Assembly: GCA_963977445.1 (NCBI GenBank)
Contig: CAXBPH010000131.1
Location: forward strand, 1 to 18,246
Source: an uncultured bacterium
Lineage (GTDB): Bacteria > Hydrogenedentota > Hydrogenedentia > Hydrogenedentales > JAEUWI01
DNA length: 18,246 nt
Direction of reading: 5' to 3'
The position numbers were made by a program, and so were the translations under genes. The notes beneath the pieces were generated by a model, which did no database searches, was not told where the DNA came from, and saw nothing but the letters and a program-made list of their open reading frames with translations. Shown here piece after piece: positions 1 through 16,570 of this stretch. How positions within the stretch are numbered: the first letter of the stretch is position 1; every line of letters begins with the position of its first letter.

Positions 1-723
1 CTTCCGCGCCACCACAAAGATAGACAGACCCGCCGGCAACGACGCCCACCCCATCCACCGGCGTTCGAGAGCCAACACTGCACCCAGTAGTCGATTTACC
101 CAACCCGGGGTATCCGGATTCAAATCAGAGCCCCGGTCGGGCATCCAACGAAGCACCAGACGACAGGCGACGATGGCAGGAAGGAGCAGGCTATTCCAAT
201 AGGAGGACGAGATAATTTCGAAGCCCCCCGCCCGAAGGAGGCCGTTGATTTCGCCGCGCGTGAACCGGCGCGCTGTATGGACCGCAACATCGTGGGAGGA
301 GTAAAGCCATTGGTAGGCGGGCACGTTGACCACCACACGGCCCCCCGGACGAAGAACACGGCCCACCTCTTTCAAAACCGCACTACGGTCTGCCACCGCG
401 CTGTGATAAAGCACGTCCAGCAGCAGCGCTATGTCGGCCTGCTCATCGGCGAGAGGCAACGCCGTCGCATCCGACCGCAAGAGACGCCCCATTCCCCGTT
501 GTTTACAGAATCCAAGGGCTTCTTCCGCCAAGTCCAGCCCCGTAATCTGATAGGAAGACGAAAGCCGTGCCGCCATACCCCCGGTGCCACAGCCGATATC
601 CACCACCTGGGCCCCCGCCCCACCCTCCTGTTGGCAGACATCGCACACCAGCCGATGCAATCCAACATACCACCAATGGGTATCCTCCACCGATCGCATA
701 CAGCCGTATTCTTCTGCATTCAC
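1..723 (-). CDS. Class I SAM-dependent methyltransferase (stop codon lies beyond the left edge)
   Basis: Not in the ORF track; translated by hand from GTG at 723 with a GAGGAG RBS just upstream: VNAEEYGCMRSVEDTHWWYVGLHRLV...VVDIGCGTGG (motif I)...ITGLDLAEEAL...SDATALPLADEQADIALLLDVLYH...EVGRVLRPGGRVVVNVPAYQWLYSSHD...GLSIFVVARK. The frame is open to base 1. Confidence 0.9.
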   Translation of the reverse strand, partial: MNAEEYGCMRSVEDTHWWYVGLHRLVCDVCQQEGGAGAQVVDIGCGTGGMAARLSSSYQITGLDLAEEALGFCKQRGMGRLLRSDATALPLADEQADIALLLDVLYHSAVADRSAVLKEVGRVLRPGGRVVVNVPAYQWLYSSHDVAVHTARRFTRGEINGLLRAGGFEIISSSYWNSLLLPAIVACRLVLRWMPDRGSDLNPDTPGWVNRLLGAVLALERRWMGWASLPAGLSIFVVARK

Positions 724-861
724 CGTTTGGTGCTCCTCGTTCTCCAGTGGTACCATGGTGCTGGGTCGGTGGTGGCACTGCATAGACCCGATCGTAAACA
801 GTGCCCATGTTCAGGGGCGTATTGTCGCGCGCAAACAATACAGAATCAAGGATGGCATCAT

Positions 862-1659
862 ATGAACACCATTTCCAAGGGGGCATTTGCCTGGCTGCTG
901 ATTGGCCTCACACTCGCAGGATGCGAATCTCGGATTAATCGTCAACGAGATGATTTTGGATTCCTGGCGATCCACAAAGCCACCCGCGCAGGCGACAGTG
1001 CCAAAGTCGCTGAGTTGCTGGACCAGGGAGCCAAGGTAAATGCTGTGGATCTCGATGGACTCACCGCATTGCATTCGGCCGCGAAAGACAATTACATCGA
1101 TATCGCCCGCATGCTACTGGAACACCATGCCGACCCCAAAGCGCTCACCAAGGATGGCTGGGACCCCGTTCAACTCGCCGCATGGCGGGGATACAGCGAT
1201 ATGGTCGAATTACTCATGACCTACAAGGCGGCAGCCAATCACAAAATAGAACGGGGCTGGACGCCGGTCCACATGGCCGCCTTCAAAGGATACCTGCCCA
1301 TTTTAACCATCTTGCGAAAAAACTGGGAATCCTATCAGCTCGATGGCAAGCCCGATTTTGATGCGCCGGACGATGATGGAAACCGCCCCGTTGCCCTCGC
1401 CATGAATGGAGGCCATATGGAGGTCGTTAACTATCTGCTGACCCTTGGCGCAGACATTAACGCCGCAGACGCATCTGGCAACTCCTTACTCCACGGTGCC
1501 GTTCTGCAAGGCGCACACGATGAGATCGCCTTTCTCCTGAGTCAGGGTGCCAACCCCAACAGTCGGGACGGCTCTGGCAGGACCCCCTACACCCTGACCG
1601 TGGAATCTCAGGACGCCGTGGCCGCCAATCTAATCATCCAGGCAGGCGGTGGCGCGTAG
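862..1659 (+). CDS. Ankyrin-repeat lipoprotein (265 aa)
   Basis: Likely start ATG 862 inside ORF 277..1659. Signal peptide MNTISKGAFAWLLIGLTLAGC ends in lipobox LAG-C21. About 6-7 ankyrin repeats follow (DGLTALHSAA, DGWDPVQLAA, RGWTPVHMAA, DGNRPVALAM...GADINA, SGNSLLHGAV...GANPN, SGRTPY). Confidence 0.9.
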   Translation: MNTISKGAFAWLLIGLTLAGCESRINRQRDDFGFLAIHKATRAGDSAKVAELLDQGAKVNAVDLDGLTALHSAAKDNYIDIARMLLEHHADPKALTKDGWDPVQLAAWRGYSDMVELLMTYKAAANHKIERGWTPVHMAAFKGYLPILTILRKNWESYQLDGKPDFDAPDDDGNRPVALAMNGGHMEVVNYLLTLGADINAADASGNSLLHGAVLQGAHDEIAFLLSQGANPNSRDGSGRTPYTLTVESQDAVAANLIIQAGGGA

Positions 1660-2054: not shown

Positions 2055-2900
2055 TTAGATGCCAAGTTCGTCGACCACGGTCGCCCAGGCGCGATTCACG
2101 GGAAAGGGTCCGGCATATTTTACCCACGCAACGTGGCCATCCATGTAGAGCACATTGGCCCCGCCAGGAATGTGGTTGAATCCCTGGGGATCTAAATCGA
2201 TACGGTCGAACATGACCGCAATCGAACTTTGTGAGATATTGGCCTTGGAGGGGTTATTAATATCCGTAATCTGGAAGCGCTCCATCCCCTCTTGAATGCG
2301 CCGCACATCCTGAATTTCCCCGAATTCTGTCGTGAACGACCAGGACGCCGCCAGGAGTCCGGGATCCGGGTCATCAAGTATGTCACGGAGCCCCTCAAGA
2401 AAGGGCTCGCTCACATCCCCCGTGCCCGCCTCGGTTATCCATTCGGTTTTAATAATCCAGTTGGCATAGAAGTAGGATAGCTGGTCAAGGAGGCAGGGGT
2501 TCACCGAGCCGCCTTCACGCGATCCCTGGGGGCCATCGGGCCGGTTCCAACGTCCATTCCGCTCTTCCTGTACCGCATTGAAGCCGGAGGGACACACCAG
2601 CACCCGGCTGTCGGTGAGATACTCTGGGTAGAGGGAGGGACCGTCAAACATGAAAATCCGTGTATTCTTGACGTCGCAAAGATCGCCGATATTGCGCTGC
2701 AGGGACGGGTACTCTCCGCCCGCCTCGTTGGCGTACATCTTGAACGCCAATCCCATCTGACGCAGATTGCTGCCACAGCTCACCCGCCGGGCCGCTTCTC
2801 GTGCACGGCTCAACGCGGGCAGCAACATGGCCGCCAGAATACTGATAATCGCGACCACCACAAGAAGTTCGATTAGTGTAAAGCCCCGTTGTTTGTTCAT
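2055..2900 (-). CDS. Prepilin-type N-terminal cleavage/methylation domain protein, DUF1559 / H-X9-DG family (281 aa)
   Basis: Start at ATG 2900: [60 protein letters not shown]-terminal [17 protein letters not shown] matches the H-X9-DG-type motif. Confidence 0.93.
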
Positions 2901-2985
2901 GCCGCCTACCCTCCAGTTTTTTCCGTTAGACCCCAATCGGACTGATGCTAGCATAGCAGCCATGCAACAGACACGCAAACTTGTT

Positions 2986-4098
2986 TCAATCACTTCCGTG
3001 AAAAAAATTGGCGATAGCCGAAGCAACCGTGGCCACCTGATTATCTGGAAATTCCGGATAGAAGGGCAGTGACAAGACCGAATCACAAGCCCCTTCCGCC
3101 ACGGGAAAATCCCCGCAGGCATAGCCCAATTCCCCATAGGCGGGCTGCAGGTGAACCGGGATGGGATAGTGAATCAGGGTCTGAACTCCAGCTTCCAGCA
3201 AATATTGCTGCAAAGCATCCCGGCGTTCCGTGCGGATCGGATAGAGATGGTGGGCCGATTGGGCCCAGGGTGCCACCGCAGGAAGACGAACGGGCACATC
3301 CTGTAGCGCATTGTCATAACGCTTCGCCAGGGAACGCCGTTGCCCATTCCAACCATCAAGGTGGCCCAGCTTGACCCGCAATACGGCCGCCTGTAGCTCA
3401 TCCAGACGACTGTTGATACCGGGGACCGTGTGGGTATACCGTTTCTCCTCACCATAATTCCGGAGCTTTCGGAGCCCGTCGGCCCATTCCGAATTCGACG
3501 TGGTCACGGCACCGCCATCTCCATAGGCCCCCAGATTCTTGGAGGGATAAAAGCTGAAGGCCCCAAGGTGCCCCAATGTCCCACAAGCCCGTCCCTTATA
3601 GGTGGCCCCATGGGCCTGGGCGCAGTCCTCCACCACCACGAGATCATGGGCATCGGCAAAGGCCATGATGGGATCCATATCGCAGGGATGTCCATAGAGG
3701 TGGACCGGCACAATAGCCCGACTCTTGGGCGTAAGAGCGTGGGCCAGTTGCGCGGGATCGAGGGTCAGGGTATCGGGGTGAGCGTCTACAAGGACCGGAC
3801 GTGCCCCCGTTGCCCCAATGCCCGCCACCGTGGGAACGCAGGTATTCGCAACCGTAATGACTTCATCCCCCGGCATGACCCCCGCAACTCGGAGTGCGAG
3901 TTGGATTGCGTCGGTGCCGGAACCCACCCCCACCGCGTGGGCCGCCCCAATCCAGTCGGCAAACTCCTGTTCAAAGGCGCGCCCTTCGTCACCGAGCACA
4001 TACCAGGTTCGCGTAAGCACGCGGTCAATTGCCGCACGCACCTCCCCGTCAATCGCCTTGAACTGAGATTGAAGCTCCACAAAGGGAATCAACGTCAC
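2986..4098 (-). CDS. DegT/DnrJ/EryC1/StrS family PLP-dependent sugar aminotransferase
   Basis: Motifs [61 protein letters not shown] (PLP lysine), [21 protein letters not shown] start at 4098 overlaps the upstream TGA (GTGA coupling). Confidence 0.95.
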
Positions 4099-4808
4099 CC
4101 GTCCTTTCCCTGGAGCACCATGCGAAACCAAAGTCCCGAAAGCTGACAGGCCACCCGAAATATACGGGGAAAATTGAAGAATTGTGACTTGCCGTGTTGC
4201 CGCTCATAGTGATGTACCGGCACTTCGGTAACGCGAAAGCCCGCACGCTGAATTTTGGTCATCATCTCGGCGCAGATGACCCCGCTATCGCTTTTCAGCT
4301 CAACTTTATCGAAGACCGAGCGACGGATGAGGCGAAAATCGCAATCTACGTCGCGAAGCTTCAAGCCAAAGGACATTCGAACGAGATGGTGGTAGATGCG
4401 GCCGATGACGATGCGGTGGAGCGGGTCGTGCCGGGTTATTTTGTACCCCTGAACCACGTCCACATCGTCGGAAACCTTTTCCACGAGCCGTTCCAGTTCG
4501 CGCACATCATATTGGGCGTCGCCGTCGGTGTAAAAGATCCAGTCCCCCGTCGCAGCCGCAAAGCCGCTGCGCAAGGCACCACCGTAGCCCCGGTTTTTTT
4601 CATGGCGCACAATCGTCACTTGGGGAAAGCAACGGGAAATCTCGTCCAACAGCGCCAGTGTGTGCTCACCACTGCCATCGTCGATAAGGGTAATATCGTA
4701 GTCCAGGCCCAGACGTTCCGCCGTCTGAATTGACAACATGACCATACTGCCCATGGTCCCCCAGTCGTTGTAACAGGGGTAGAAAATTGAAACGCGGGTC
4801 TTTTCCAT
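4095..4808 (-). CDS. Glycosyltransferase family 2, DPM1/ArnC-like polyprenol-phosphate glycosyltransferase
   Basis: SIFYPCYND, LIDDGSGE, HEKNRGYGGALRSGF, FYTDGDAQY (DxD), RDVDCDFRLIRR, EVPVHHYERQHGKS. Confidence 0.93.
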   Translation of the reverse strand: MEKTRVSIFYPCYNDWGTMGSMVMLSIQTAERLGLDYDITLIDDGSGEHTLALLDEISRCFPQVTIVRHEKNRGYGGALRSGFAAATGDWIFYTDGDAQYDVRELERLVEKVSDDVDVVQGYKITRHDPLHRIVIGRIYHHLVRMSFGLKLRDVDCDFRLIRRSVFDKVELKSDSGVICAEMMTKIQRAGFRVTEVPVHHYERQHGKSQFFNFPRIFRVACQLSGLWFRMVLQGKDG

Positions 4809-4810
4809 AA

Positions 4811-6580
4811 TTACTCCAGAGTTTTCGTGCTAGACAGTAGCACAAATCCGCCTACGGTTTTAAGTGATGTACCCGGCGGCACGTCAGCACGGTTTTCGGG
4901 ACGATCTGGCAGTACCACCACATCGTAGGTACCGAGTAAATTCGAAAGTCCCGTTCCGGTGTCTATAGACCGACCCGCAAAAAAATTCAGCAGACCGGGC
5001 AGCCGTCCACTCGTTGTTACAATGCGGATTTCCTGGGGAAAGGCGGCCAGGGCCCGAACAATCGCCTTCTCCTCCGCCATCTCTACTTTCGTCCCAATCT
5101 CCCGGCCCTGAAGGGTCACCCACCGAAGACCGGGAGCCAGCAGGAGAATCACACAACATGCCCAGAGCACGCGGTTCCGACGGCTCGCCCCCCTATTCAG
5201 GACCTCACCCATCGCCATTGCCAACCAGGGGGCACTGAAGAGGGCAAAAATGGCGTAGGCGTTCCAGAGGTAGCGATGGAGTTGGCCCGGTGTAAAAAAG
5301 TACCACCAGTAGAGCATGAACACCCCATAGAGATAGAGGGCCGCGCCGGCCGGGGTATACCGGTGACGAAATACCAGGGGGACACTCACCACGGCCACGA
5401 CCAGCCAGACCAGGTGGGCAACAGGATTATGAACGACCGAGTTGGCCAGGGCGAAGGGCAGGCTTTCCAGGCCGAAGAGCAGATAGTGCTGGTAGATGGC
5501 CAATAGGCCACCGTCGGCACCTTCCTGGGGGCCGTGATTCGCTTGGGCCAGGGTCCAACATGAAAGGACGGCAAGTCCCCCCATAGTCGGCAACACGACG
5601 TGTACCCAGTGTATCTTCCGAAAGGTTACCCGGTCATAGGCCCAGACGCCTGCAAAACTGAAGACCACCAGCACGACGATGGATTTCGACAGGACCGCCA
5701 ATCCTATAAGTGCCCCCGCCGAGAGGCCCCAGGCATAGCGCTTGGGATGCTCCAGGGCCTCATGCCAGGCGAGTAATCCGAGTAGTAAAAACGTAAAAGC
5801 CGGCACTTCCCCATAGAGGGTACGGCCCAGATAGATGGAAGAAAAGGTGCCCACGAGTAGTCCCACCGACAGGGCGCCAGACCAGCCACCGAAGAGCTTC
5901 CGGCCAAACTGGAAGAAGGCCCCACATAGGACAAGGAAAAAGGCCACCACAATCGCGCGGGCCACAACCAGAGATACGCCAAATACACGGAAGCCCGTTG
6001 CCACCGGCACAATCACCGCAGGGCCGACGGAATCGAAGGAGTCGAAATAGGTAAAACCGGTCTCAGGATGTCCCGAGGCATAGCTGCCGTGAATCGCCAG
6101 ATTGCGGGCCACATTCAGATGGTGAATTTCGTCGGGCGCGGCCCAGGGGTAGTCGCCGATTCGGAACACCAGGAGTCCAAGAATACCGGTAAGTAACAGT
6201 ACCAACAGGCCAATCGCTCGAACCTCAACACGCCGCGGGGGAAACGTCGGCGGTGCAAGCGGGTTCCTTTCGCGAAGTCGCCACAGGCACGTGGCAAAAC
6301 ACGCCGTAATCAGACCAAACGCCACGAATCGAAAGAGCAGTCCCCCCGGCGATTGAATAACGTCAAAGGCGGGATTCTGATGGGTATACACCAGCAGAAT
6401 GAGGGCACCCAAACTCGTGAAGCCGCCGAGAACCATGCCCAGGGTGCTCAGAACACGGAAGCCATCACGCCATGTAAATGGCAGGATAGGAAGGGTAGCA
6501 ATGGACGCCCCGGAGCGGGTGTCGTGTTCGGCTTCCGTCACAGGCAAACATCCTTGTTGGCAACGGTACAGTAGGGTCAC
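4811..6580 (-). CDS. Polytopic membrane glycosyltransferase, ArnT/PMT-like (GT-C fold, GT39/GT83-like); start uncertain
   Basis: Many hydrophobic helices; WAAPDEIHHLNVARNL (DE motif after a TM helix), YGEVPAFTFLLLG, GLAVLSKS, LHRYLW; short soluble C-terminal domain. Stop is 2 nt from the GT2 start. Confidence 0.8.
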   Translation of the reverse strand: MTLLYRCQQGCLPVTEAEHDTRSGASIATLPILPFTWRDGFRVLSTLGMVLGGFTSLGALILLVYTHQNPAFDVIQSPGGLLFRFVAFGLITACFATCLWRLRERNPLAPPTFPPRRVEVRAIGLLVLLLTGILGLLVFRIGDYPWAAPDEIHHLNVARNLAIHGSYASGHPETGFTYFDSFDSVGPAVIVPVATGFRVFGVSLVVARAIVVAFFLVLCGAFFQFGRKLFGGWSGALSVGLLVGTFSSIYLGRTLYGEVPAFTFLLLGLLAWHEALEHPKRYAWGLSAGALIGLAVLSKSIVVLVVFSFAGVWAYDRVTFRKIHWVHVVLPTMGGLAVLSCWTLAQANHGPQEGADGGLLAIYQHYLLFGLESLPFALANSVVHNPVAHLVWLVVAVVSVPLVFRHRYTPAGAALYLYGVFMLYWWYFFTPGQLHRYLWNAYAIFALFSAPWLAMAMGEVLNRGASRRNRVLWACCVILLLAPGLRWVTLQGREIGTKVEMAEEKAIVRALAAFPQEIRIVTTSGRLPGLLNFFAGRSIDTGTGLSNLLGTYDVVVLPDRPENRADVPPGTSLKTVGGFVLLSSTKTLE

Positions 6581-6647
6581 TCGAAGTATAACAAGGCCAC
6601 CGCCACGTCACAACCTCGATAAAGCCGCGCCAACGATACCGGTTCGT

Positions 6648-8966
6648 TCAGGTACCGGTATCCTCCGGGTTCGTTTCCACGTCATCGGGCAGCAAGACCG
6701 TAAACGTCGAGGAGTCACTGCCGCCACCAACCAACTGCACGGTAACGGTGTGTTCGCCCGGCATCAGGGGCCAATCAAGACGTTCCCCGCCGTCTACCTT
6801 GCCAAGATAGCGCCCATCCATAAACCAATGTAGCGGCTCGGACAAGGCACCATGTACCGACAAGGGAATCCGGTCTCCCTGGGGCACCCCGCTCAACACA
6901 TAGGCGGATCCCGCTGGTGGGCTGTTGATTCGCACCATCGTCGCCCCCACGGACCCACCCGACGGGCTCACTGTGCGGGCCTCCACCGTCGACAAGTCCC
7001 ACTCGGTAGCCTGGACAGGGCGGGAGGCCACCACATTCAAACCCGTTTGGGATTGTACGTGCAGGGTACACGTTCGGTTGGTCCACATACCCTTGGGAAG
7101 AACCAGATGGGTACGCTCCGGGCACGTCTCCCTTGCCGGAAGTCCGGACGTAGCACACAGGCTGACCGTCTTACCCGCGGGCGACGGTGGCCACGCGGCC
7201 CCACGGGTTACTGGCAATCCACGAAAAACCGCGCCTGCCAAAGGAAGGGCCGCACGAGCCCCCACCAACTGGCGCGCGCCCCGACCATCGTTATTTCCCA
7301 ACCAGACGGCCACGAGATAATGCTGATTGAAGGCGAAGGTCCAGGCATCGTGGTACCCGGTCGAGGTTCCCGTCTTCCAGCACACCGGCGGGTCATTGCC
7401 CTCCCTTCGCTGGAGGCCCCTACTCACATCGTCGGGAAACGGCTGGACCAGCATGTCGTAGAGCAGCCGAGAAATGCCCCCGTCCAACACCCGCTCGCCA
7501 CCGCCCCTTGGGCCATCCGACTCAATCCGGAGCGCGTTTTGTCGCCCCAGACTGGCGACGGAAAGATACAGCCGGCTCAGGTCCTCCAGGGAGACCTCAC
7601 AATTACCGAGAGCGAGTCCCAGCCCATAGTCAGACGGCTTTCGGTCAATACTCGTCAACCCTTCCGACCGCAGAAATTGATGAAAGCCTGCGACACCGAC
7701 CCGTTCGAGCAAGGCAACGGCCGGAACATTCAACGAGTACCGCAACGCCTCCGTGGCCGTCACCGGGCCGTTAAATATGCCATCAAAGTTGCCCGGCGCA
7801 TAGCGGCCAAAATCCAGCACATCGTCGAGGAGCACTTCCGATGGGTAAAGCTGCTGCTGGGCCATGGCATAGCCATAGAGAAAGGGTTTCAGCGTCGAAC
7901 CCGGCGAACGCAGCGCCCGGCATCCATCGACCTGACCGCCCCCCGGCGTATTCTCGAAGCTCGCCGAGCCAACCCGGGCCAGCAGGGCACCCGAGGAGAC
8001 GTCCACCACCATAACCGCGCCGTTCGTAATGGCCCCGTTAAAGCGCTTGAGGTAGTGCGGTAGCTGGGCCTCCAAATTTCGTTGTATGCCGCCGTCGAGG
8101 GTCAATTTCACCGACTCCCCACGGGACAGCGCGTCGGCGTAATACACGCCCAGATGGGGAGCGCTACGGGGAAAATCGTGCCACGCCACCGTCACGGGGG
8201 TAGCCAACGCCCGCTCACACACGGCCGCTTCGATGTAGCCATCCTTCAACATCCGACGCAACACATAATTTCGCCGATCCCGGGCGCGCTCGGGATGGGC
8301 CAGGGGGTTCAGCCGACTCGGGGCTTTGGGCAATGCCGCGAGCAGGGCCGCCTCGGACAGGGTCAGACTCTGGGCCGACTTGCCAAAGTATCGCCAGGCC
8401 GCCGCCTCGACCCCAATCAAATTCATCCCGTAGGGTGCGCGATTGAGATAGGCCGCCAGAATTTCGGCCTTCGACAAGGATTTTTCCAGGCGCAAGGCAC
8501 CGATGGCCTGACTAACCTTACCCCAAACGCTACGACTGTCATGTCCGCCCAGTTTCACCAACTGCATGGTCAATGTCGAGGCACCCGAGGCCACGCCAGC
8601 ATGACGGATGTTTTGACCCAATGCCCGGGCAATCGCAAGGCCATCGACCCCGTGGTGCCTAAAAAAACGCTGGTCCTCTGCGGCCAGGGTCGCCTGCTCC
8701 AGATAGGGATTAACCCCGCCATCCCCTTGTGGCAGCGACCACGTATCCGCCGCACTCAAGGATACATAGAGCCTCCCCCCAGAACTATCCAGCAATTGCC
8801 CCGAGTGCGCAACAGAAACATAGGGGGCCGGATCCAGGGCGGGCAAAAGCCACCAACCGGCGAAGCAAACCAACAGACACAGGAGTGCCATTGCGATTGC
8901 AAGGGGGCCCCTGCGTCGCACGTGTGCCAAATATTTTTTTATCCTGACCATCACCATTTGTCTCAC
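6648..8966 (-). CDS. pbpC: Penicillin-binding protein 1C (transglycosylase, transpeptidase and C-terminal domain)
   Basis: N-terminal TM helix; TG motifs AAEDQRFFRHHGVD, GASTLTMQLVK, LSKAEILAAYLNRAPYG; TP motifs SPGSTLKPF (SxxK), YSLNVP (SxN), WKTGTS (KTG); PBP1C-type C-terminus LHWFMDGRYLG...PGEHTVTV. The start could be one of the nearby ATGs (8957/8951). Confidence 0.92.
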   Translation of the reverse strand: MRQMVMVRIKKYLAHVRRRGPLAIAMALLCLLVCFAGWWLLPALDPAPYVSVAHSGQLLDSSGGRLYVSLSAADTWSLPQGDGGVNPYLEQATLAAEDQRFFRHHGVDGLAIARALGQNIRHAGVASGASTLTMQLVKLGGHDSRSVWGKVSQAIGALRLEKSLSKAEILAAYLNRAPYGMNLIGVEAAAWRYFGKSAQSLTLSEAALLAALPKAPSRLNPLAHPERARDRRNYVLRRMLKDGYIEAAVCERALATPVTVAWHDFPRSAPHLGVYYADALSRGESVKLTLDGGIQRNLEAQLPHYLKRFNGAITNGAVMVVDVSSGALLARVGSASFENTPGGGQVDGCRALRSPGSTLKPFLYGYAMAQQQLYPSEVLLDDVLDFGRYAPGNFDGIFNGPVTATEALRYSLNVPAVALLERVGVAGFHQFLRSEGLTSIDRKPSDYGLGLALGNCEVSLEDLSRLYLSVASLGRQNALRIESDGPRGGGERVLDGGISRLLYDMLVQPFPDDVSRGLQRREGNDPPVCWKTGTSTGYHDAWTFAFNQHYLVAVWLGNNDGRGARQLVGARAALPLAGAVFRGLPVTRGAAWPPSPAGKTVSLCATSGLPARETCPERTHLVLPKGMWTNRTCTLHVQSQTGLNVVASRPVQATEWDLSTVEARTVSPSGGSVGATMVRINSPPAGSAYVLSGVPQGDRIPLSVHGALSEPLHWFMDGRYLGKVDGGERLDWPLMPGEHTVTVQLVGGGSDSSTFTVLLPDDVETNPEDTGT

Positions 8967-9197
8967 ATACCGTGTCTTTCACGATTGTAACATCCCGACT
9001 TCCTATCCCCCACTACGCCTGGAGGTTCCAAAACCCACCCCTTTCCTTACAACGGATACCGCTGCGTGAAATGGACTTCGCCCTGCAACCGTTGGGCGCG
9101 CACGCAAAATAGCGTATGAAAATAAGACACTTTTCACTTCCAGGAGTCCTTCTTTCAAAAAAACTTGTCAAAACGAACAAAAATACCTTTATTTCCC

Positions 9198-9226
9198 TTG
9201 AATACTGCAATACTTTGTACTACCAT
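9198..9226 (+). promoter_or_regulatory. Putative sigma70-type promoter for kinase 1
   Basis: TTGAAT (9198-9203), 17-nt spacer, TACCAT (9221-9226) in the AT-rich divergent intergenic region, about 40 nt before the likely start. Confidence 0.45.
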
Positions 9227-9265
9227 CGCAGCAGTCTACTATTTGACCTAACGGACTCCATGACG

Positions 9266-12200
9266 ATGCGTGAATATGATCTCATACTAGGAATCCTCGC
9301 CTGCCAGCTGCGCCTGCTTTCGCGCAATGCCCTTGCAGAAATAGCCGTCACGCTCGGTACTGATGCGGACACCACGCTGGCCGGACTCCTACGCACGGTC
9401 GATCTCATCAATAAGGAAAACCACACACTCCTCATTCGAATGACCGATGAGCTCATTCATGCTCACCAGGGCAATGCAGCAGCGGCGCTCCATACCATTG
9501 GCGGTGATGCCGCCGTCCAGGATGCCTTTGCTCGTTCCATCATACGCGATGGGGTTACCTGGCTCCCCAGTGAAGACGCTACGCTCGTGGCGGAGCACCT
9601 GCCCCACGGCCTGCCCGCGCAAATTACTCCGGAATCGATCGGACGCTACACCAGAGGCTCCGAATATGCCCGGGGCGGTATCGGACGCATATTGCTGGTG
9701 CACGACGAACAAATCGGCCGGGACGTCATCCTCAAAGAGTTACTGCCCCGCCACACCGTGAGCCCCACCGACCCCACGCTTTCGCGCATGCCGCCACCGG
9801 AGAGTCCCGGAAGCCCAGGAAGTCCCATACGACAATCCGCGTCCATGATGGCCCGCTTTCTGCAAGAAGCAAAAATTACGGGTCAATTGGAACACCCCTC
9901 CATTGTTCCCGTATATGAGCTGGGCCTCCGAAACGACGGCCAACTCTACTACACAATGAAACTGGTCCGGGGCGACACCCTGGCCAAGGCCATCTCCGCG
10001 CGCACGACCAGAGAAACACGACTATCCCTGCTGCGCTCCTATCTTGATGTCTGCCAGGCCATGGCCTATGCACACACCAAAGGGGTCATACACCGTGACC
10101 TGAAACCCTCCAATATCATGATTGGAGAGTTCGGCGAATGCGTCGTCCTCGACTGGGGCCTCGCCAAGATGCAGCGCGAGGTGGACGCCCATCAGGAGAC
10201 GATGGAAAAAACCATCAGCCAGCTCAAACTGACCGACCAGAACCTCGGCGGACTGCGTACACGCTCCAAAGAAGTCCTGGGCACCCCACTGTATATGTCC
10301 CCCGAACAGGCACGGGGTGCTGTCGATGAAATCGGCCCCCACTCCGACGTCTACAGTCTCGGCGTCATCCTTTATGAAATCCTGACGGGGACCCTTCCCC
10401 ACGTATGGACCAATTCTTCCGACACGGTCCAACGGGTCGGGTCGATCCCCGTCCCCCCCGTGGCAAAAACGGAGCCCAACACGCCCCCCGAACTCGCCGC
10501 CATCTGTGACAAGGCGCTCCACTTTGAAGCAAGCAAACGCTACCCATCGGCGCAGGAACTGGCCGATGATATTTCTCAGTTCCTGGAAGGTGCCGTCGTC
10601 GATGCCTATAGCTACAGCGTAGGCGACCTCCTCCGACGACTCTATCGGCAGCACAAGACGTTGATTCGGGTGACCGCCTCGGCCACGCTGATTATCCTGC
10701 TCATCGGCATCTTTTCCTATGTAAACATTTATCACGCGCGTATCGTCGCAGAAAACGCCCGCATCGTCGCCGAAGAACAGCGCCAAATCGCCGAGTCCCA
10801 GCGACAACAGGCCGAGGAACAACGGGTACGCGCCGAAGAGGCCGAAGAAGAGAGCGCTCGCGGAAAATACGTCTCCGATATACGCCTCGCGGATGCCTAC
10901 ATCCGGGACTACAAATTCCAGGCCGCCGAAGACATCCTGCTGGACACGGATCCGCGCTACCGCAATCTCGAGTGGAACTATCTCATCGGCCAATGTAATC
11001 AGGACATGGGCACCCTCCGTGGCCACACGGCGAGTGTCTTCGCTCATGTCTCCCACAAGGGCGCATACATATTGACTATGGCCGGCGACAACACGGCGCG
11101 TCTGTGGAATGCTCAGACGGACCAAACGCTGTTCACGTGGAAGCTTTCCGACGCGGGGGTGATGAATGGAGCCTTCAGCCCCACGGATGCGCAGGTGGCG
11201 ATTTGGTTCTTTGACGGCACGATCCAGGTATTCAACACCGAGTCGGGTGCCCTCGACCATGAATGGGCCGCCCATCCCTCGCGCATCGACGCGGTCGCCT
11301 TTGACAGCACGGGCACGTTGCTTGCCACGGCAGGCGAAGACCAAACCCTTCGCCTCTGGAATGCGACCACCTTCGAACTCCTCCACGACGCGGCCACACC
11401 GGACTTCGCGGTTTCTGGCTTGCTGTTCACAGGCAATAACAATGCACTGCTGGCCACATCGCGGGTCGGTTCGGCTCGAATATATACGGTGGCCGACGTC
11501 TCGCTTGCGCGATCCGAAGATTCGCTGGGGACGGTAATTGCCCGTTCGGACACGGCGTTATTTTCCTATCAGGATCACAACCTCACCAAACGCGCCCTAC
11601 CAGACTTTTCTATCGAGTGGACGGTGACCGTTCCCAACCGGCCTGCCACCGCGCAATTCTACCCGGAACATGACGCGCTGCTCCTTGGGTTTGACGATGG
11701 CTCCATCGAAGCACGACGAGGAAACGACGGCTCGCCTGCCAGCGTGTTGCACCCGGGTCACCCCTTCGACAAGTGTATGCTCAACGTGGACGGCAACCGG
11801 GTGATTACCATCGCTCTGAATGGGAGCATCCGCGTTTACGACGTGGAGTCCACTGACGTGGTGCTTCAGGTTGCGGGCCATAACGGCACCATTTCTACCG
11901 CAATGGTGTCCCCTGATGACACCTACCTGCTTACCGGATCACAGGACGGAACCGCGAAGAAGTGGCGACTGGACTCGGCCGGTGCCAACGAAATAGTCGC
12001 TCGGGTAGCCGCCGGGTCCCTGCTATGCGCAGAAAGTGGCGACGGCAACACCCTGGGCGTCCTGGCACCGGACCAACACCTCCGCATCATTGACCTCCCC
12101 TCGGGGGCAACAACTTTCGAAGCGGCCTTTCCCGTATTGCGTAGTGCCCATTGCACGGCCCTCAACACCGATGGTACCCTCCTCGTCGCGGTGGCCGACG

Positions 12201-13675
12201 AGTTCTTGCCCCTCGTCCTGTCCTTGCCCGACGGTGACGTAGTGAGCCAATTGCATGGCCACAACGGGCTCATCTCCCACGTAACCTTCAGCCCTACGGA
12301 AGACGTGGTGGCAACCACCTCGTGGGACCAGACGGTTCGTATTTGGGATGGCCGCACAGGGACAATCCGAAGCATCCTCGAAGGCCATGAAGACGCCGTT
12401 ATAAACGCACGATTCTCACCCGACGGGCGCCGCATCGCAACCCTGTCCCTCGACAATTCGGTCCGAATATGGCAATGGGACAACAACGAAGTTTTACTTA
12501 AGATCTCGGCAACCACGGCACCGGTAGAAATCGCCTTCTCTCCGAGCGGCACACGCATCGCCGCTGCATTCCGGGGCGGCCTGTTTCAAATCTGGAATAT
12601 CGATACCGGCACCATGGAATTTGAAAGTAAGGAAAAAATCGCCGATATCCATGCCATTGGCTTCGCAAGCGACGAGAAACGACTCCTCACGTGGAACGCT
12701 CAGGCGGATATGGATTGCTGGGACGTAGAAGACGGGCGACATCTCGTGGCCGCCCCCGCGTCGGCTCCCCCTTCATCCCTCTGGCTCCATGGGCCGTCCG
12801 CCCCGCCCTATCTGTTAACCAGTCAGCGTGACGGCACCGTCGTCCGCAACAACCTTTCGGAACAATCTACGGCACCGGCCGTTAACAATCGCGACGCACT
12901 ATACGCCCTCCTTGCCGAATCGGCCACACCGAAGCAGCCCACACCGGCCGTCCCCGCTCCTGACTCGGAGGATGACCTGCGTCGGTATTATCTGCCCCAG
13001 GAGGCCATCGTCAGGCTACTCACTAGCCTCGAAACGCGCGACGCCAATTCCCAATGGACCGACGACGAGAGCCTTCCGCCAATCCGGCCCGTGACGCTTG
13101 AACCTGGTGACGTCGTCCGTGAGCTGAATGGGCTGAACCCAACCTTATTTCTTTCCGACGATAGTGCCTCGCTTCGCACGGCCCTTAGCGCTGGCGACGT
13201 CCCCCTTCAACTCACCATTGCCCGTGGCGATTTCGTCCGCCATCTCGAACTCCGGGGCCTGCCGGTCCGCCAGAGCGAACGCACCGTCGTATTGGACCCG
13301 ACCCAGGCCAAAGCCATGCTGGAATCAGCCCTGCTCGCATCGGAATCCATCCTGGCCGAAGTAAGCACCGAATATGCCGAGCGCCTCGGGCGTTCCTTCG
13401 ACGGCGACGCAGCTACGTACGACAGCGGCATATGGCTTCCCAGTCCGCGAAGTTCCCTGCGCCGCGCGATGCTCCGCACCGCCGGGCTGGAAGTGTCCAG
13501 CGCGATCACCGCTATCAATGGTGCGCCCGTACCCGCCTTTAAGCAACTGAAGGCGCAATTGGAACGGGTCGCCGGTGAACTGACGGACCAGTCACCCTTC
13601 GAACTACAAATTCAGATGGAGCGCGGCGTATTTGAAACCGTCACGCTGAACCTACGCAGCACGTCCCCCCCATGA
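9266..13675 (+). CDS. Hanks-type Ser/Thr protein kinase with TM helix, coiled coil, WD40 repeats and C-terminal PDZ-like region
   Basis: Start ATG 9266 (or 9260) chosen from alignment with the paralogue at 17617 (MREYDLILG vs MRDYDILFG). Kinase motifs YARGGIGRI, VILKE, RFLQEAKITGQLEHPSIVPVYE, VIHRDLKPSNIM, VLDWGLAK, GTPLYMSPEQ, SDVYSLGVILYE. TM ASATLIILLIGIFSYVNI. WD40 units such as LRGH...DNTARLWN, GHNGLISHVTFSP...DQTVRIWD, GHEDAVINARFSPDG...DNSVRIWQ. Confidence 0.95.
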   Translation: MREYDLILGILACQLRLLSRNALAEIAVTLGTDADTTLAGLLRTVDLINKENHTLLIRMTDELIHAHQGNAAAALHTIGGDAAVQDAFARSIIRDGVTWLPSEDATLVAEHLPHGLPAQITPESIGRYTRGSEYARGGIGRILLVHDEQIGRDVILKELLPRHTVSPTDPTLSRMPPPESPGSPGSPIRQSASMMARFLQEAKITGQLEHPSIVPVYELGLRNDGQLYYTMKLVRGDTLAKAISARTTRETRLSLLRSYLDVCQAMAYAHTKGVIHRDLKPSNIMIGEFGECVVLDWGLAKMQREVDAHQETMEKTISQLKLTDQNLGGLRTRSKEVLGTPLYMSPEQARGAVDEIGPHSDVYSLGVILYEILTGTLPHVWTNSSDTVQRVGSIPVPPVAKTEPNTPPELAAICDKALHFEASKRYPSAQELADDISQFLEGAVVDAYSYSVGDLLRRLYRQHKTLIRVTASATLIILLIGIFSYVNIYHARIVAENARIVAEEQRQIAESQRQQAEEQRVRAEEAEEESARGKYVSDIRLADAYIRDYKFQAAEDILLDTDPRYRNLEWNYLIGQCNQDMGTLRGHTASVFAHVSHKGAYILTMAGDNTARLWNAQTDQTLFTWKLSDAGVMNGAFSPTDAQVAIWFFDGTIQVFNTESGALDHEWAAHPSRIDAVAFDSTGTLLATAGEDQTLRLWNATTFELLHDAATPDFAVSGLLFTGNNNALLATSRVGSARIYTVADVSLARSEDSLGTVIARSDTALFSYQDHNLTKRALPDFSIEWTVTVPNRPATAQFYPEHDALLLGFDDGSIEARRGNDGSPASVLHPGHPFDKCMLNVDGNRVITIALNGSIRVYDVESTDVVLQVAGHNGTISTAMVSPDDTYLLTGSQDGTAKKWRLDSAGANEIVARVAAGSLLCAESGDGNTLGVLAPDQHLRIIDLPSGATTFEAAFPVLRSAHCTALNTDGTLLVAVADEFLPLVLSLPDGDVVSQLHGHNGLISHVTFSPTEDVVATTSWDQTVRIWDGRTGTIRSILEGHEDAVINARFSPDGRRIATLSLDNSVRIWQWDNNEVLLKISATTAPVEIAFSPSGTRIAAAFRGGLFQIWNIDTGTMEFESKEKIADIHAIGFASDEKRLLTWNAQADMDCWDVEDGRHLVAAPASAPPSSLWLHGPSAPPYLLTSQRDGTVVRNNLSEQSTAPAVNNRDALYALLAESATPKQPTPAVPAPDSEDDLRRYYLPQEAIVRLLTSLETRDANSQWTDDESLPPIRPVTLEPGDVVRELNGLNPTLFLSDDSASLRTALSAGDVPLQLTIARGDFVRHLELRGLPVRQSERTVVLDPTQAKAMLESALLASESILAEVSTEYAERLGRSFDGDAATYDSGIWLPSPRSSLRRAMLRTAGLEVSSAITAINGAPVPAFKQLKAQLERVAGELTDQSPFELQIQMERGVFETVTLNLRSTSPP

Positions 13676-13797
13676 TTTCCTCCAAGTAAGTACGACACGA
13701 AGGAAAGGAGGCTACATACGAGCGAGCTACACACTATGCGTCCGAGAAGTTCTGTTTCATTCAGGCAACGTAAAATCCCATGGAAAGGTTAATCTAG

Positions 13798-14625
13798 ATG
13801 GCCTATTTTGATGTATTAAAACAGCCGAATAATACAACCCCCGACTGCATCGGTTCTCGAAGCATAAATCTCATGTGTGCTGTGCTCAATACCACGGACT
13901 CGAGTGGCACCGCCGTTCGTATTGACTACGAAGCCCTGTATAACAAGGCATTTCACGTGAGAGGCGGCAACAGCACCTTAGACAATATCATACGAAACAT
14001 CGAGAAAATGGATTCTGTCCTCTGGCACGGCGCAACGGACACCTCCCAAATAGTTTGGGACAAGCTTGTCGATCCCGCAGCTCCTGGTGCGTTAATCCTC
14101 ATAAGAGATCACCTTGCAGCGAGTGGTTACCCCGATGTAAAACTCGGCGATATGTTTAAAGTGAATTATTCTGTTCTCCCGTCGGCGGGTCTTGTTTCCC
14201 ACTATCAATTCATACACACCGCGCTGGAAGGGGTCCACGCCGTCAAGGACGACCAAATGTTTCACTTTTGCGCACCCCTTCTGGCCGTCCAAAACGGCTA
14301 CCGGCTGCCCATCGACGAAGGCGTATACAAAAAATTCATTGGAGATTTCGGTGCCTTTACCATGCAGGATCTATTCCAAAAGAAACTCAGCGATCCTGAC
14401 CATGCAACGACGAAGTTACTCGCAAAACAAGCACGTGCAAATGGACTCCTGTGGGAAGGGCGCCCCATCAAATCACGCCCGCCCAGCCCTATGAGATCTC
14501 GTGAAGGAAACGGCAAGAAATGTGTTGGCAATGTATGTACAGAAGATCCCCAGCATCCGGAATATTGGTGCAGTCAAGTCCCTGACGGCAACGGTGGATA
14601 CGTCTGCGCAATGGGCAGCGACTGA
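13798..14625 (+). CDS. Hypothetical protein, paralogue A (275 aa), with C-terminal 4-Cys module
   Basis: ATG with GGAAAGG upstream; aligns end to end with the next ORF, with mostly synonymous differences in conserved blocks, which supports real coding. No family recognised. Confidence 0.88.
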   Translation: MAYFDVLKQPNNTTPDCIGSRSINLMCAVLNTTDSSGTAVRIDYEALYNKAFHVRGGNSTLDNIIRNIEKMDSVLWHGATDTSQIVWDKLVDPAAPGALILIRDHLAASGYPDVKLGDMFKVNYSVLPSAGLVSHYQFIHTALEGVHAVKDDQMFHFCAPLLAVQNGYRLPIDEGVYKKFIGDFGAFTMQDLFQKKLSDPDHATTKLLAKQARANGLLWEGRPIKSRPPSPMRSREGNGKKCVGNVCTEDPQHPEYWCSQVPDGNGGYVCAMGSD

Positions 14626-14699
14626 GCAATAAGGACCGACACGTCTTTTCCTTCAACACCATTGGCCGTTGACCGCCATCCACTACAAGGAGAAATGAG

Positions 14700-15584
14700 T
14701 TGAGTCATTTTGACGTAAGTACCTTACGACCCAACGCGCCGGATTCCATTGCTACACGCAGTATTAATCTGATGTGCGCAATGCTCAAAACAGGCAACAA
14801 CACAGTCAATTATGGAATGCTCTACGAGGACGTGCTCCACAACAACAGTGGAAGCAGCACGCTGGATAAAATTATCTCAAACGTATCCAATATGGACGCC
14901 ATACTCAGGCGGGGTGCAACAGAAGCCAACAACTCGGAAATCGTATTCCACAAATTGATACGTGATACTGCAGGAAACCTCGGCGCATTAACCAATATTC
15001 ACGCAAGGCTAAACGCCGATCCAAACAATATCCCTGAAATCCGCCTCGGTGATATGTTCAGAGTGAACTTTACAACCATCCGGCCAAACAACACCTATAC
15101 GCCAGCATACATCGCGCATATGCAATACATTCACGCACAACTGGAAGGAGTACAGGCTTCAGCAAATGACGAGATGTATCACCTTTGTATGCCCTTCCGA
15201 GCCGTTCAAAATGGCACGGCCCGTCCAGTGGACGACGCCGATTTGAGCGCGTTCTTTGGAGCTTTCAGATATCTTACAATGCAGAATTTCTTCGACACGT
15301 GCTACCCGAGTATGGAAACGCTGAAACCACTGGTTAAAGCGGCAAAAAAAGCAGGAATTCTCTGGGAGGGACGAAGTCTGTCGTCCAGGCCGTTTGCAAT
15401 AGTGAACGAAACAACCGAGAAAAAAGAAACAACCGAGGATAGGTGGACACTAGACAGCCGTGAGGGCAACGGCAAAAAATGTTCCAACAATAGCTGCGTA
15501 GCGGATCCGCTTCATCCTGAATATTGGTGCAATCAGGTTCCAAACGGATCGGGTGGCTACGTGTGTGCACTGGGAAGCGACTAA
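14700..15584 (+). CDS. Hypothetical protein, paralogue B (294 aa), with C-terminal 4-Cys module
   Basis: TTG start 7 nt after AAGGAG (14687-14692); N-terminus MSHFDV matches MAYFDV of paralogue A; shared blocks RSINLMCA, STLDxII, LGDMFxVN, IHxxLEGV, AVQNG, LWEGR, SREGNGKKC, HPEYWC, GGYVCAxGSD. Confidence 0.88.
   Translation: MSHFDVSTLRPNAPDSIATRSINLMCAMLKTGNNTVNYGMLYEDVLHNNSGSSTLDKIISNVSNMDAILRRGATEANNSEIVFHKLIRDTAGNLGALTNIHARLNADPNNIPEIRLGDMFRVNFTTIRPNNTYTPAYIAHMQYIHAQLEGVQASANDEMYHLCMPFRAVQNGTARPVDDADLSAFFGAFRYLTMQNFFDTCYPSMETLKPLVKAAKKAGILWEGRSLSSRPFAIVNETTEKKETTEDRWTLDSREGNGKKCSNNSCVADPLHPEYWCNQVPNGSGGYVCALGSD
15408..15437 (+). repeat. 12-bp direct repeat GAAACAACCGAG x2 (encodes ETTE-KK-ETTE)
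   Basis: Copies at 15408-15419 and 15426-15437, inside the linker present in paralogue B but absent from A. Confidence 0.85.
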
Positions 15585-15701
15585 GGACTTTCAACCAGAA
15601 CAAGATTCAATCATACGCTCGATGCCTAATTGGCGTACCGGGTATAGCTACCCCCAACGCGACGACTATAATGGCAAAGACGTAGAAAGTGTCCAGCTAT
15701 C

Positions 15702-15754
15702 TTGGCCACGTCCTCAACAGGCTCCATCCCTTTGGGGGCGTGGCTAATTTCGTT
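15702..15754 (+). terminator. Putative intrinsic terminator / long stem-loop after the paralogue pair
   Basis: TTGGCCACGTCCTCAA (15702-15717) pairs with TTGGGGGCGTGGCTAA (15732-15747): 16 bp including 3 G-U pairs that only form on the + transcript; 14-nt loop; followed by TTTCGTT (a weak U-tract). Confidence 0.55.
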
Positions 15755-15814
15755 CGTAATAGTGGCACGTCGTACTCCATACGTTACCCCAAGTAAATAC
15801 CAAGAGGATTCCCC

Positions 15815-16570
15815 ATGGACAACCAGGCCCTGCAACGTGATTTCGACCGCGATGGCTACATCGGTCTGCCCCAGTTCTGGTCCCCACTGGAGATGGCGGA
15901 ACTCCAAAACAACCTGCAACGCTTCATCGAAACCGTTCTACCTACCCTCCCTCCCGAGCGGGTCTTTTACGAAGACAAAGCCCGCCCCGAGTCCCTGAAG
16001 CAGATTCAACAGCTCTATGAATACGACGACTATTTTCACAAGCTCATGTTTGACAGCCCCTTCCAGGCGGTGGCGGAAGCGGTCTTGAAAGGTCCCGTCG
16101 TGGCCAAAAACATGCAGTATTTCAACAAAGCCCCCGGCCACAATCAGCCCACACCACCCCATCAGGATGGCTACTATTTCAATCTGGACCCCTGCGAAGC
16201 CGTCACCCTCTGGTTCGCCCTCGACGAGGTGGATGAAGAGAATGGCTGCGTTCGCTATGCCCGCGGCTCTCATCGGGGCGGTCTCCTGCCCCACGGTCGC
16301 ACCCAGACCCTGGGCTTTTCGCAGGGCCTGCTGGACCGAGGACCCTGCGAAGATCCCGAGACCATGGTCGCCTGCCTGGCCCAACCGGGCGACTTGCTTG
16401 CCCACCACGCGCTGACCATACACTGGGCCGATGGAAACCAGAGTGCCATCCGTGATCGCCGGGCACTCGGTTTCATATACTATAGTGCAGCGGCCCGGGA
16501 AGACCGGGTACGCCACGAGGCCTACCAACAGGAACTGGCCGATTCGTTGACCCGAGCCGGAAAACTATAG
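15815..16570 (+). CDS. Phytanoyl-CoA dioxygenase (PhyH) family Fe(II)/2-oxoglutarate dioxygenase
   Basis: [23 protein letters not shown] (HxD), [15 protein letters not shown]...[21 protein letters not shown]...RRA (distal His and 2OG-binding Arg); GAGGA RBS. Confidence 0.93.

Follow-up and report, generated by a model that had tools for sequence, protein, structure and literature searches.

What are the two adjacent, similarly built proteins encoded at positions 13798-15584 of an 18,246-nucleotide stretch of DNA from an uncultured Hydrogenedentota bacterium (contig CAXBPH010000131.1, GenBank assembly GCA_963977445.1; the whole stretch is referred to here as the window), and what might they do beside the large membrane kinase gene that precedes them? 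Planctomycetes and related bacteria possess dozens to hundreds of membrane serine/threonine (Ser/Thr) kinases with periplasmic WD40 or tetratricopeptide-repeat (TPR) arrays. The accessible part of PMC11032199 names no input signals for these arrays. In this study, we find that the two proteins, P0001 and P0002, are neighbouring paralogues from a protein family that is undescribed and restricted to one lineage, and that this family is the near-obligate genetic partner of one subfamily of receptor kinases, represented in the window by P0034. On this basis the family proteins are tentatively proposed, with less than even confidence, to be cognate accessory or ligand proteins of the extracytoplasmic sensor of the kinase. 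The principal difficulty of this proposal, the lack of a recognizable export signal in most members including both of those in the window, is weighed below together with three other explanations.

A protein family with a conserved cysteine-rich tail

The initial annotation of this DNA described P0001 and P0002 as a co-linear pair of unrecognized paralogues, each with a divergent body, a linker of variable length and a highly conserved cysteine-rich tail, and this description is borne out. The two proteins align end to end in BLASTP with 131 identities over 303 positions (43%, 12% gaps, E = 1e-82), and the alignment contains all of the conserved blocks that had been listed (FDV, RSINLMCA, STLD.II, LGDMF.VN, H.Q.IH..LEGV, M.H.C.P, AVQNG, TMQ and G.LWEGR). 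The linkers differ by a 16-residue insertion in P0002, and recounting the identities between the two 42-residue tails gives the same 32/42. Synonymous sites are saturated in both parts of the pair (synonymous difference, pS, 0.73 in the tail and 0.81 in the body), with nonsynonymous difference (pN) below pS throughout and only 0.18 in the tail compared with 0.36 in the body. The similarity of the tails therefore reflects purifying selection on the protein and not recent gene conversion. Read from the TTG at position 14700, ahead of which lies a strong Shine-Dalgarno sequence, P0002 aligns with P0001 from residue 1; the public gene call for this second paralogue (P0003, 267 residues) begins at the internal Met28 (window 14700-14781) and, because its start is placed there, lacks the conserved N-terminal segment. 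No longer upstream open reading frame (ORF) was found for either protein, and a promoter and terminator scan of positions 13400-16000 gave counts at or below shuffled expectation.

An exhaustive phmmer search of 1.84 billion representative proteins retrieved 32 proteins at E ≤ 1e-3, with 18 at E ≤ 1e-10 and four at E ≤ 1e-30. Thirty of the 32 are 246-316 residues long, two are shorter (169 and 216 residues), and for most the match spans almost the entire query. A word-indexed search of 5.8 billion proteins matched only the two window proteins, the paralogue P0002 as a truncated call, and no longer fused forms were present among 8000 candidates, which is weak evidence. In the alignment and profile of the 32 proteins (A1; residue numbers are those of P0002), L116, C163, P165, F185, A215, C261, C266, C277, C289 and S293 are invariant, and N23, L24, M25, Y38, Y42, L69, F120, H161, F166, Q170, G190, L221, G256, N257, and W276 are nearly so; conservation reaches at least 90% for H161, N23, Y38, Y42 and Q170. 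Pairs of members are on average 31.9% identical in the body and 41.9% identical in the tail, the linker varies from 11 to 39 residues, and the tail follows the consensus GNG..C-x3-13-C-x7-15-WC-x5-11-C-x3-S-D, with 5-45 residues after the last core cysteine. Neither window protein matches any family at E ≤ 1 in Pfam, NCBIfam or PADLOC. Among all 32 members no Pfam match is better than E = 0.04 (the best are single ones at E 0.04-0.1, among them zf-XS in one member at E = 0.095), and the best match of the A1 profile to PDB sequences has an E value of only 0.22. No description of the family was found in full-text literature searches, the coverage of which does not extend to subscription journals.

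The AlphaFold2 model of P0002, calculated with A1, has a predicted local distance difference test score (pLDDT) of 90.7 and a predicted TM score (pTM) of 0.89. It contains 12 helices in residues 17-217, a disordered linker at 236-249 and four short strands in 259-289, and suggests a protein of three parts: an all-α body of ~230 residues, a disordered linker and a C-terminal mini-domain of ~40 residues in which two β-hairpins carry the four invariant cysteines. P0001 has the same architecture, with an all-α body, a short linker and a four-cysteine tail. Foldseek retrieved no PDB chain at E ≤ 0.001 for the P0002 model (best 0.99) and none in BFVD, and a wide VIA search of 48,161 chains gave a best Z of 3.3 and nothing at Z ≥ 5, in a list that is dominated by the body and barely tests the tail (residues 250-294). 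The body as modelled thus has no detectable known fold. In the ESM Atlas the whole protein had no usable feature match; the feature scores of the tail (0.75-0.76) are leads only, and the structure rows reach a TM score of at most 0.54 on a poor Atlas model. An NlpC/P60 (papain-like) assignment of the body was considered and dropped, since its source, the sole lead when a window protein was compared with PDB sequences by phmmer, is a 46-residue match to the endopeptidase LytE at only E = 0.67, the model is all-α and no such chain appears in the Foldseek or VIA lists. Since 32 homologues share this architecture and neither a known family nor a known fold is matched, the earlier suggestion of an undescribed two-module family, in which a variable linker joins the body to the cysteine-rich tail, holds.

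Within A1 the tail contains four cysteines in 17 proteins, six in seven and five in the eight members of one clade, and more distant members mostly have four, six or eight. The extra cysteines come together in at least four sequence groups, either as a CC pair plus a cysteine in a C-terminal extension or as a CxxC in the extension. Such paired gains fit both disulfides and shared metal ligands without separating the two, and the small disulfide- or metal-stabilized tail that had been envisaged is plausible in view of its four invariant cysteines and the addition of others in pairs. A further proposal, that conserved His, Cys and Glu residues form a site in the body, stands in part: C163 is invariant and H161 is at least 90% conserved in the 32-member alignment, but the H.Q.IH block is not conserved. 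In a wider set of sequences the C-x-P-F/W portion of the HFCxPF motif is kept in most lineages, whereas H161 is lost outside the core clade (Asp or absent). In addition, C163 is replaced by Ala in the exported member from genome G005, and in a clade of the type found in genome G081, with genes that follow orthologous kinases, the alignment to the profile is confined to positions 175-267 and the motif is missing. Together, these three features argue against a conserved catalytic site.

A receptor kinase and its genetic partner

P0034 is a Hanks-type kinase, with a Pkinase score of 109.4 bits (cut-off 31.7) and the motifs VIHRDLKPSN and DVILKEL; its DFG motif reads DWG. An N-terminal region is followed by the Pkinase domain (residues 244-481), a transmembrane segment (514-544), a coiled coil, WD40 propellers (~629-1209) and a tandem PDZ region (~1210-1519); the transmembrane segment lies between a basic cluster and the coiled-coil-like stretch. 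In all eight kinases inspected (seven full-length and one cut by a contig start) there is exactly one transmembrane segment, situated just after the kinase domain and preceded by a basic cluster, and the paired kinases are ~1450-1520 residues long. The C-terminal region matches Pfam only through PDZ at E = 0.11 (13.3 bits, cut-off 23.2). A model of this region of ~310 residues, calculated with an alignment of 19 kinase C-termini (A2), retrieved 27 PDB hits at E ≤ 0.001 in Foldseek (best 3.3e-5, probability 0.97-1.0), led by the PDZ1-PDZ2 pair of DegP/DegQ and the PDZ tandem of RseP/S2P. VIA returned DegQ (Z = 7.5), HtrA (7.4), MamP (7.4) and DegP (7.2), as well as RseP, GspC, CtpB and DegS, and nearly all of its top 50 (Z 5-7.5) are PDZ domains or PDZ-containing proteins. 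From this model, the kinase C-terminus is predicted to have a PDZ fold. According to the accessible part of PMC11032199, planctomycetal single-pass Ser/Thr kinases have a Pkinase domain that is predicted to be cytoplasmic and WD40 arrays that are predicted to be periplasmic. The single transmembrane segment, this topology and the PDZ fold together make the neighbour a receptor kinase with a predicted ectodomain of WD40 repeats and tandem PDZ domains. No description of a kinase-WD40-tandem-PDZ architecture with such partners was found in the full-text searches, within the coverage given above.

The pairing of this kinase with the family is not peculiar to the window. In a forward survey, the A1 profile was compared with 135 genomes of a phylum sample and gave 35 matches in 20 of them, including seven of the eight other genomes of the same genus. 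The matches were grouped into 27 loci, often tandem arrays of two to four genes. At 23 of the 26 that could be evaluated, the C-terminal domain of the kinase is immediately followed on its own strand by one family gene or an array. Kinases had been named in the initial annotation among the neighbours worth seeking, and it is a kinase that stands directly upstream. The loci without such pairing are one at a contig start, two orphans in genome G096 and one doubtful 80-residue fragment in genome G052. The window genome yields 39 matches to the kinase domain, and about eight of these are close paralogues (46-65% identity); a full C-terminal PDZ domain is present in only two kinases, that of the window (C131:9116) and one on contig C271, and family genes follow both. 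The tail and A1 hidden Markov models (HMMs) matched only the three family genes behind these two kinases among the 100,305 six-frame ORFs of this genome. The A2 profile recognizes full-length tandem-PDZ kinases in many genomes beyond these. The reverse survey covered the DNA downstream of 20 further tandem-PDZ kinases recognized by this profile, of which three stretches were too short and 17 were evaluable. Thirteen of the 17 kinases are followed on the same strand by a protein of 230-430 residues with 4-8 cysteines in its last 60 residues and an A1 match (E 2e-25 to 1e-3). No gene other than the kinase is conserved across genera among the ORFs scanned (38 + 34).

Within the genus the kinase domains are 64-76% identical, compared with 27-32% for the WD40 region and 25-27% for the PDZ region, so that the sensor side and the family-protein bodies diverge at similar rates. 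PDZ-domain and partner identities in eight modules correlate with a Spearman coefficient of 0.69; we give this value no weight, since a shared phylogeny would lead to such a correlation. A complex prediction for the kinase C-terminal domain with P0002 (score 0.01, mark 0.32) is evidence neither way. The N-terminal region of the kinase (window 9116-9850, ~240 residues) has no Pfam match at E ≤ 10, and is 46-59% identical in same-genus kinases, including unpaired ones. P0034 was also examined as a class III/IV lanthipeptide synthetase and rejected as such: lanthi_synth_IV reaches 67.7 bits (cut-off 650) and covers residues 247-355 only, and for LanKC lanthi_synth_III scores 24.6 bits against 575, the remainder of the protein being transmembrane segment, WD40 repeats and PDZ domains.

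Table 1. Features of the module and adjoining genes in the window
Feature	Positions	Strand	Basis
Single-pass receptor Ser/Thr kinase P0034, 1519 aa	9116..13675	+	Pfam Pkinase 2.7e-31, WD40 families; transmembrane segment
Predicted tandem-PDZ region at the kinase C-terminus	12743..13672	+	AlphaFold2 pLDDT 75.4; Foldseek and VIA PDZ matches
Family member 1, P0001, 275 aa	13798..14625	+	ATG start; ORF and translation; A1 profile match E 1.5e-78
Tail of member 1, residues 234-275, SREGNGKKC..C..WC..C.MGSD	14497..14622	+	Tail-only HMM match E 4e-13
Family member 2, P0002, 294 aa	14700..15584	+	TTG start, AAGGAGA 7 nt upstream
Tail of member 2, residues 253-294, invariant C261, C266, C277, C289, S293	15456..15581	+	Invariant A1 alignment columns; Cys counts
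PhyH-type 2-oxoglutarate/Fe(II) dioxygenase 1, 251 aa	15815..16570	+	Pfam PhyH 1.2e-30
PhyH-type 2-oxoglutarate/Fe(II) dioxygenase 2, 293 aa	16581..17462	+	Pfam PhyH 8.3e-36
Second kinase of this type, N-terminal part only (truncated at the contig end)	17617..18246	+	51% identity to P0034 residues 36-263

The remaining genes of the module and its surroundings are listed in Table 1 or described here. A PhyH gene adjoins the module in three other loci of the same genus, but none occurs among the ORFs that were scanned in five further genera; its linkage to the module is thus seen only within one genus. The rest of the kinase that is cut off at the end of the window probably lies on contig C271. 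This contig opens at about residue 276 of a kinase of this type (C271:3-662 matches P0034 residues 276-495) and holds a kinase C-terminus and a third family member of 246 residues (locus L042, 18-3758 and 3819-4559); on this sequence evidence the two contigs are probably adjacent. The joined order would be kinase A, two tail genes, two PhyH genes, kinase B, one tail gene, HpcH, SSF and FAD oxidoreductase, the order found in G066:C72. These last three neighbours, an HpcH aldolase, an SSF transporter and a FAD oxidoreductase, were judged to be unrelated synteny within the genus.

Several variants of the module were encountered. The orphans of G096 (L066, C158 3927-4838, minus strand; L067, C267 6269-7081, plus strand) are of the G081 type with CC...C...C...C..SDPCH tails, and the same genome also carries a paired family copy. 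Members of 430 residues lie behind a second type of PDZ-kinase in L054 (G069:C1:6435000-6439500) and L063 (G062:C421); they have two A1 matches in the body, which looks like a duplicated body, and a single four-cysteine tail ending CPP. In L041 (G132:C4) an IS30-like transposase (HTH_38 + rve, 11826-12827) lies inside the expected PDZ-kinase, leaving WD40 and C-terminal fragments, and in G106:C15 the kinase is likewise split into several ORFs; both may be decaying modules. Locus L052 (G094:C22) encodes, at 2858-4159 on the minus strand, an S8 subtilase of 433 residues with a twin-arginine-like N-terminus between the PDZ-kinase and the Cys-tail gene; no other locus seen has a protease in the module. 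Elsewhere in the window, positions 2986-8966 (minus strand) encode DegT/EryC1-type aminotransferase, GT2 and PMT_2 (ArnT-like) glycosyltransferases and a PBP1C-like transglycosylase/transpeptidase with a BiPBP_C domain, an envelope gene run that is not conserved beside the module elsewhere. An ankyrin-repeat protein of 460 residues is encoded at 277-1659 (plus strand) and a DUF1559/N-methyl (type IV pilin-like) protein at 2055-3137 (minus strand). PSCyt/PSD1 proteins are present in related loci, and together with the DUF1559/N-methyl protein they are the sole ground for reading the lineage, a single order, as planctomycete-like.

Possible roles of the family proteins

If the family proteins are accessory or ligand proteins of the kinase sensor, the extracytoplasmic WD40/tandem-PDZ module would recognize the tethered Cys-knot tail, either by itself or together with the body, and the occupancy of this module would determine the output of the kinase. 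Recognition might be modulated by the redox, metal or hydroxylation state of the tail, and tandem paralogues could provide several ligands per receptor. We infer here the physical binding, the compartment of the members without a signal (the window pair among them) and the effect on the kinase. Export signals are present in four of the 29 genome-derived members, Sec-like in those from G005 and G023 and Tat-like (RRxFL) in two from G059, and in all four the signal occupies the place of the conserved N-terminal x-Y-F-D-V segment.

A number of observations weigh against this proposal, the most serious being the compartment. Hydrophobic segments, defined as 19-residue Kyte-Doolittle windows at or above 1.6, signal peptides and transmembrane helices are absent from all 32 proteins of A1. 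Both window proteins are included in this count; the initial annotation had likewise seen no obvious signal peptide or transmembrane helix in them. No signal peptide or transmembrane segment is recognizable in 25 of the 29 genome-derived members either. As read, the window proteins would be cytoplasmic, while the WD40 and PDZ domains are predicted to lie outside. The Tat-like signals of G059 are themselves below curated cut-offs (TAT_signal E 0.07-0.11). Regarding the chemistry of the tail, the five-cysteine clade also gains a C-terminal His (CxxC ... GSDYH), which fits a metal better than disulfides, and the bodies carry an odd number of cysteines, including the invariant C163. The 5-45 residues beyond the last core cysteine make a poor fit to simple PDZ recognition of a free C-terminus. 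The pairing also has its gaps: four of the 17 PDZ-kinases of the reverse survey have no detectable family gene downstream, the two orphan genes of G096 have no kinase nearby, and linkage among related genomes is non-independent evidence.

The missing export signals would be accounted for if the family proteins were cytoplasmic substrates or adaptors, with a ribbon-like, Zn-binding cysteine tail, that are phosphorylated by or serve as scaffolds at the kinase domain and relay the signal sensed by the WD40 and PDZ domains; we regard this explanation as unlikely. It would follow naturally from the absence of export signals in A1 and in most further members, from the two predicted Cys-bearing β-hairpins of the tail, from the clade that gains its cysteine together with a C-terminal His, and from an operon shared with a Hanks-type kinase that keeps its HRD motif and catalytic Lys; the invariant S293 of C-x3-S-D would be one candidate phosphorylation site. 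However, the four distant members with Sec- or Tat-like signals would then require a switch of compartment within the family, which is unusual. The part of the kinase that is specific to the pairing is the extracytoplasmic PDZ tandem, whereas the cytoplasmic part is common to about six unpaired paralogues. Although two hairpins are predicted for the tail, the spacing C-x4-C ... C-x11-C differs from that of a classical zinc ribbon with its pair of CxxC knuckles, and the extra cysteines are mostly paired and number up to eight in all, as is typical of disulfide-rich domains.

The initial annotation had suggested a precursor of the kind known from ribosomally synthesized and post-translationally modified peptides (RiPPs), or a self-processing protein, as one possible function. 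The body would then act as leader, recognition or autocatalytic domain, and cleavage near [RH]-[ED]-G-N-G, perhaps after PhyH has hydroxylated the tail, would release the tail as a Cys-knot peptide. The two-module design with its disordered linker agrees with such a function, as do the near-invariant G256 and N257 immediately before the first cysteine, the pair of PhyH genes that comes next in the window (three further loci of the genus have one close to the module) and the Tat-signal S8 subtilase between kinase and family gene in G094. Nevertheless, the tail is the better conserved part (41.9% against 31.9% in the body), the reverse of most leader/core precursors and not what is expected of a hypervariable core. 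No modifying enzyme, peptidase or exporter is kept beside the module across genera: PhyH does not occur in the scanned ORFs of five other genera and the S8 protease occurs in one locus only. The kinase is a membrane receptor with LanL/LanKC matches that are limited to the kinase domain and far under the cut-offs, and outside the core clade the body has no universally conserved polar residue. This function of the tail is therefore improbable, and the earlier suggestion is not upheld. That the body is a new enzyme using H161 and C163 of HFCxPF, with the tail as an accessory binding domain and a purely regulatory link to the kinase, is very improbable despite the invariance of C163, the conservation of H161, N23, Y38, Y42 and Q170 and the weak LytE match, since the motif varies or is missing outside the core clade as described above, the model is all-α with a papain or NlpC/P60 chain in neither structural search list, and no Pfam enzyme family is matched.

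The proposal of an accessory or ligand protein for the kinase sensor can be extended to a complete signalling system, in which the protein would be exported by Sec or Tat in some lineages and, in the majority, by an unrecognized route that depends on x-Y-F-D-V, the Cys-knot would be the ligand of the WD40-tandem-PDZ module and PhyH would hydroxylate the tail in one genus. Such a bacterial receptor-kinase/cysteine-knot-ligand system is unlikely. If true, it would be a prokaryotic counterpart of the signalling between cysteine-rich peptides and receptor kinases in plants and animals. One kinase subfamily gains a concrete, genetically hard-wired candidate partner, and the question of what such kinases sense becomes directly testable with two or three proteins. 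The family also adds an uncharacterized domain family to the catalogue, with a body of no known fold and a strongly selected tail.

Comparison with known systems

Fused-precursor RiPPs of the borosin/OphMA-like type and class III/IV lanthipeptide systems, the synthetases of which contain a kinase domain, resemble the present module in combining a folded N-terminal domain and a C-terminal Cys/Ser-rich peptide with a kinase encoded next door. In contrast to these systems, the body here is not a recognizable modifying enzyme, the kinase is a membrane receptor without lyase and cyclase domains, the tail is conserved in place of being hypervariable, and no protease or exporter is conserved.

The PDZ domains of DegS, DegP and RseP serve in periplasmic sensing through exposed C-terminal peptides of envelope proteins. 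The likeness lies in a kinase C-terminus that is predicted to fold as a periplasmic PDZ tandem and in a partner with a conserved C-terminal motif on a flexible tether. Here, however, the PDZ tandem is fused to a kinase and not to a protease, and the partner ends in G-S-D(-Y-H) or extends for up to 45 residues, unlike the hydrophobic Y-x-F type.

In plants, cysteine-rich protein ligands act on receptor kinases. Wnt-type ligands, as presented in the accessible part of PMC12419801, have a helical core and Cys-rich hairpins with a conserved Ser. The family shares with such ligands a helical domain joined to a small Cys-stabilized β-hairpin module, an occurrence in multigene arrays and a paired membrane receptor. 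Unlike Wnt, it has no Pfam match to the wnt or lipocone families and no Wnt chain among its structural matches, and most of its members lack a signal peptide. The likeness to Wnt and lipocone proteins is an analogy only, because it has no sequence or fold support.

PknG-GlnX-GlnH, cited in the accessible part of PMC11032199, is a bacterial system in which a Ser/Thr kinase receives its signal through operon-encoded accessory proteins. The partners of the two systems are unrelated in sequence and fold, a solute-binding lipoprotein and a membrane protein in the one and a helical protein with a Cys-knot tail in the other, and the kinase described here spans the membrane, with WD40 and tandem PDZ domains predicted outside. 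What they have in common is a Hanks-type kinase with a repeat domain and genetically coupled, non-enzymatic partners that would deliver an extracellular signal to it.

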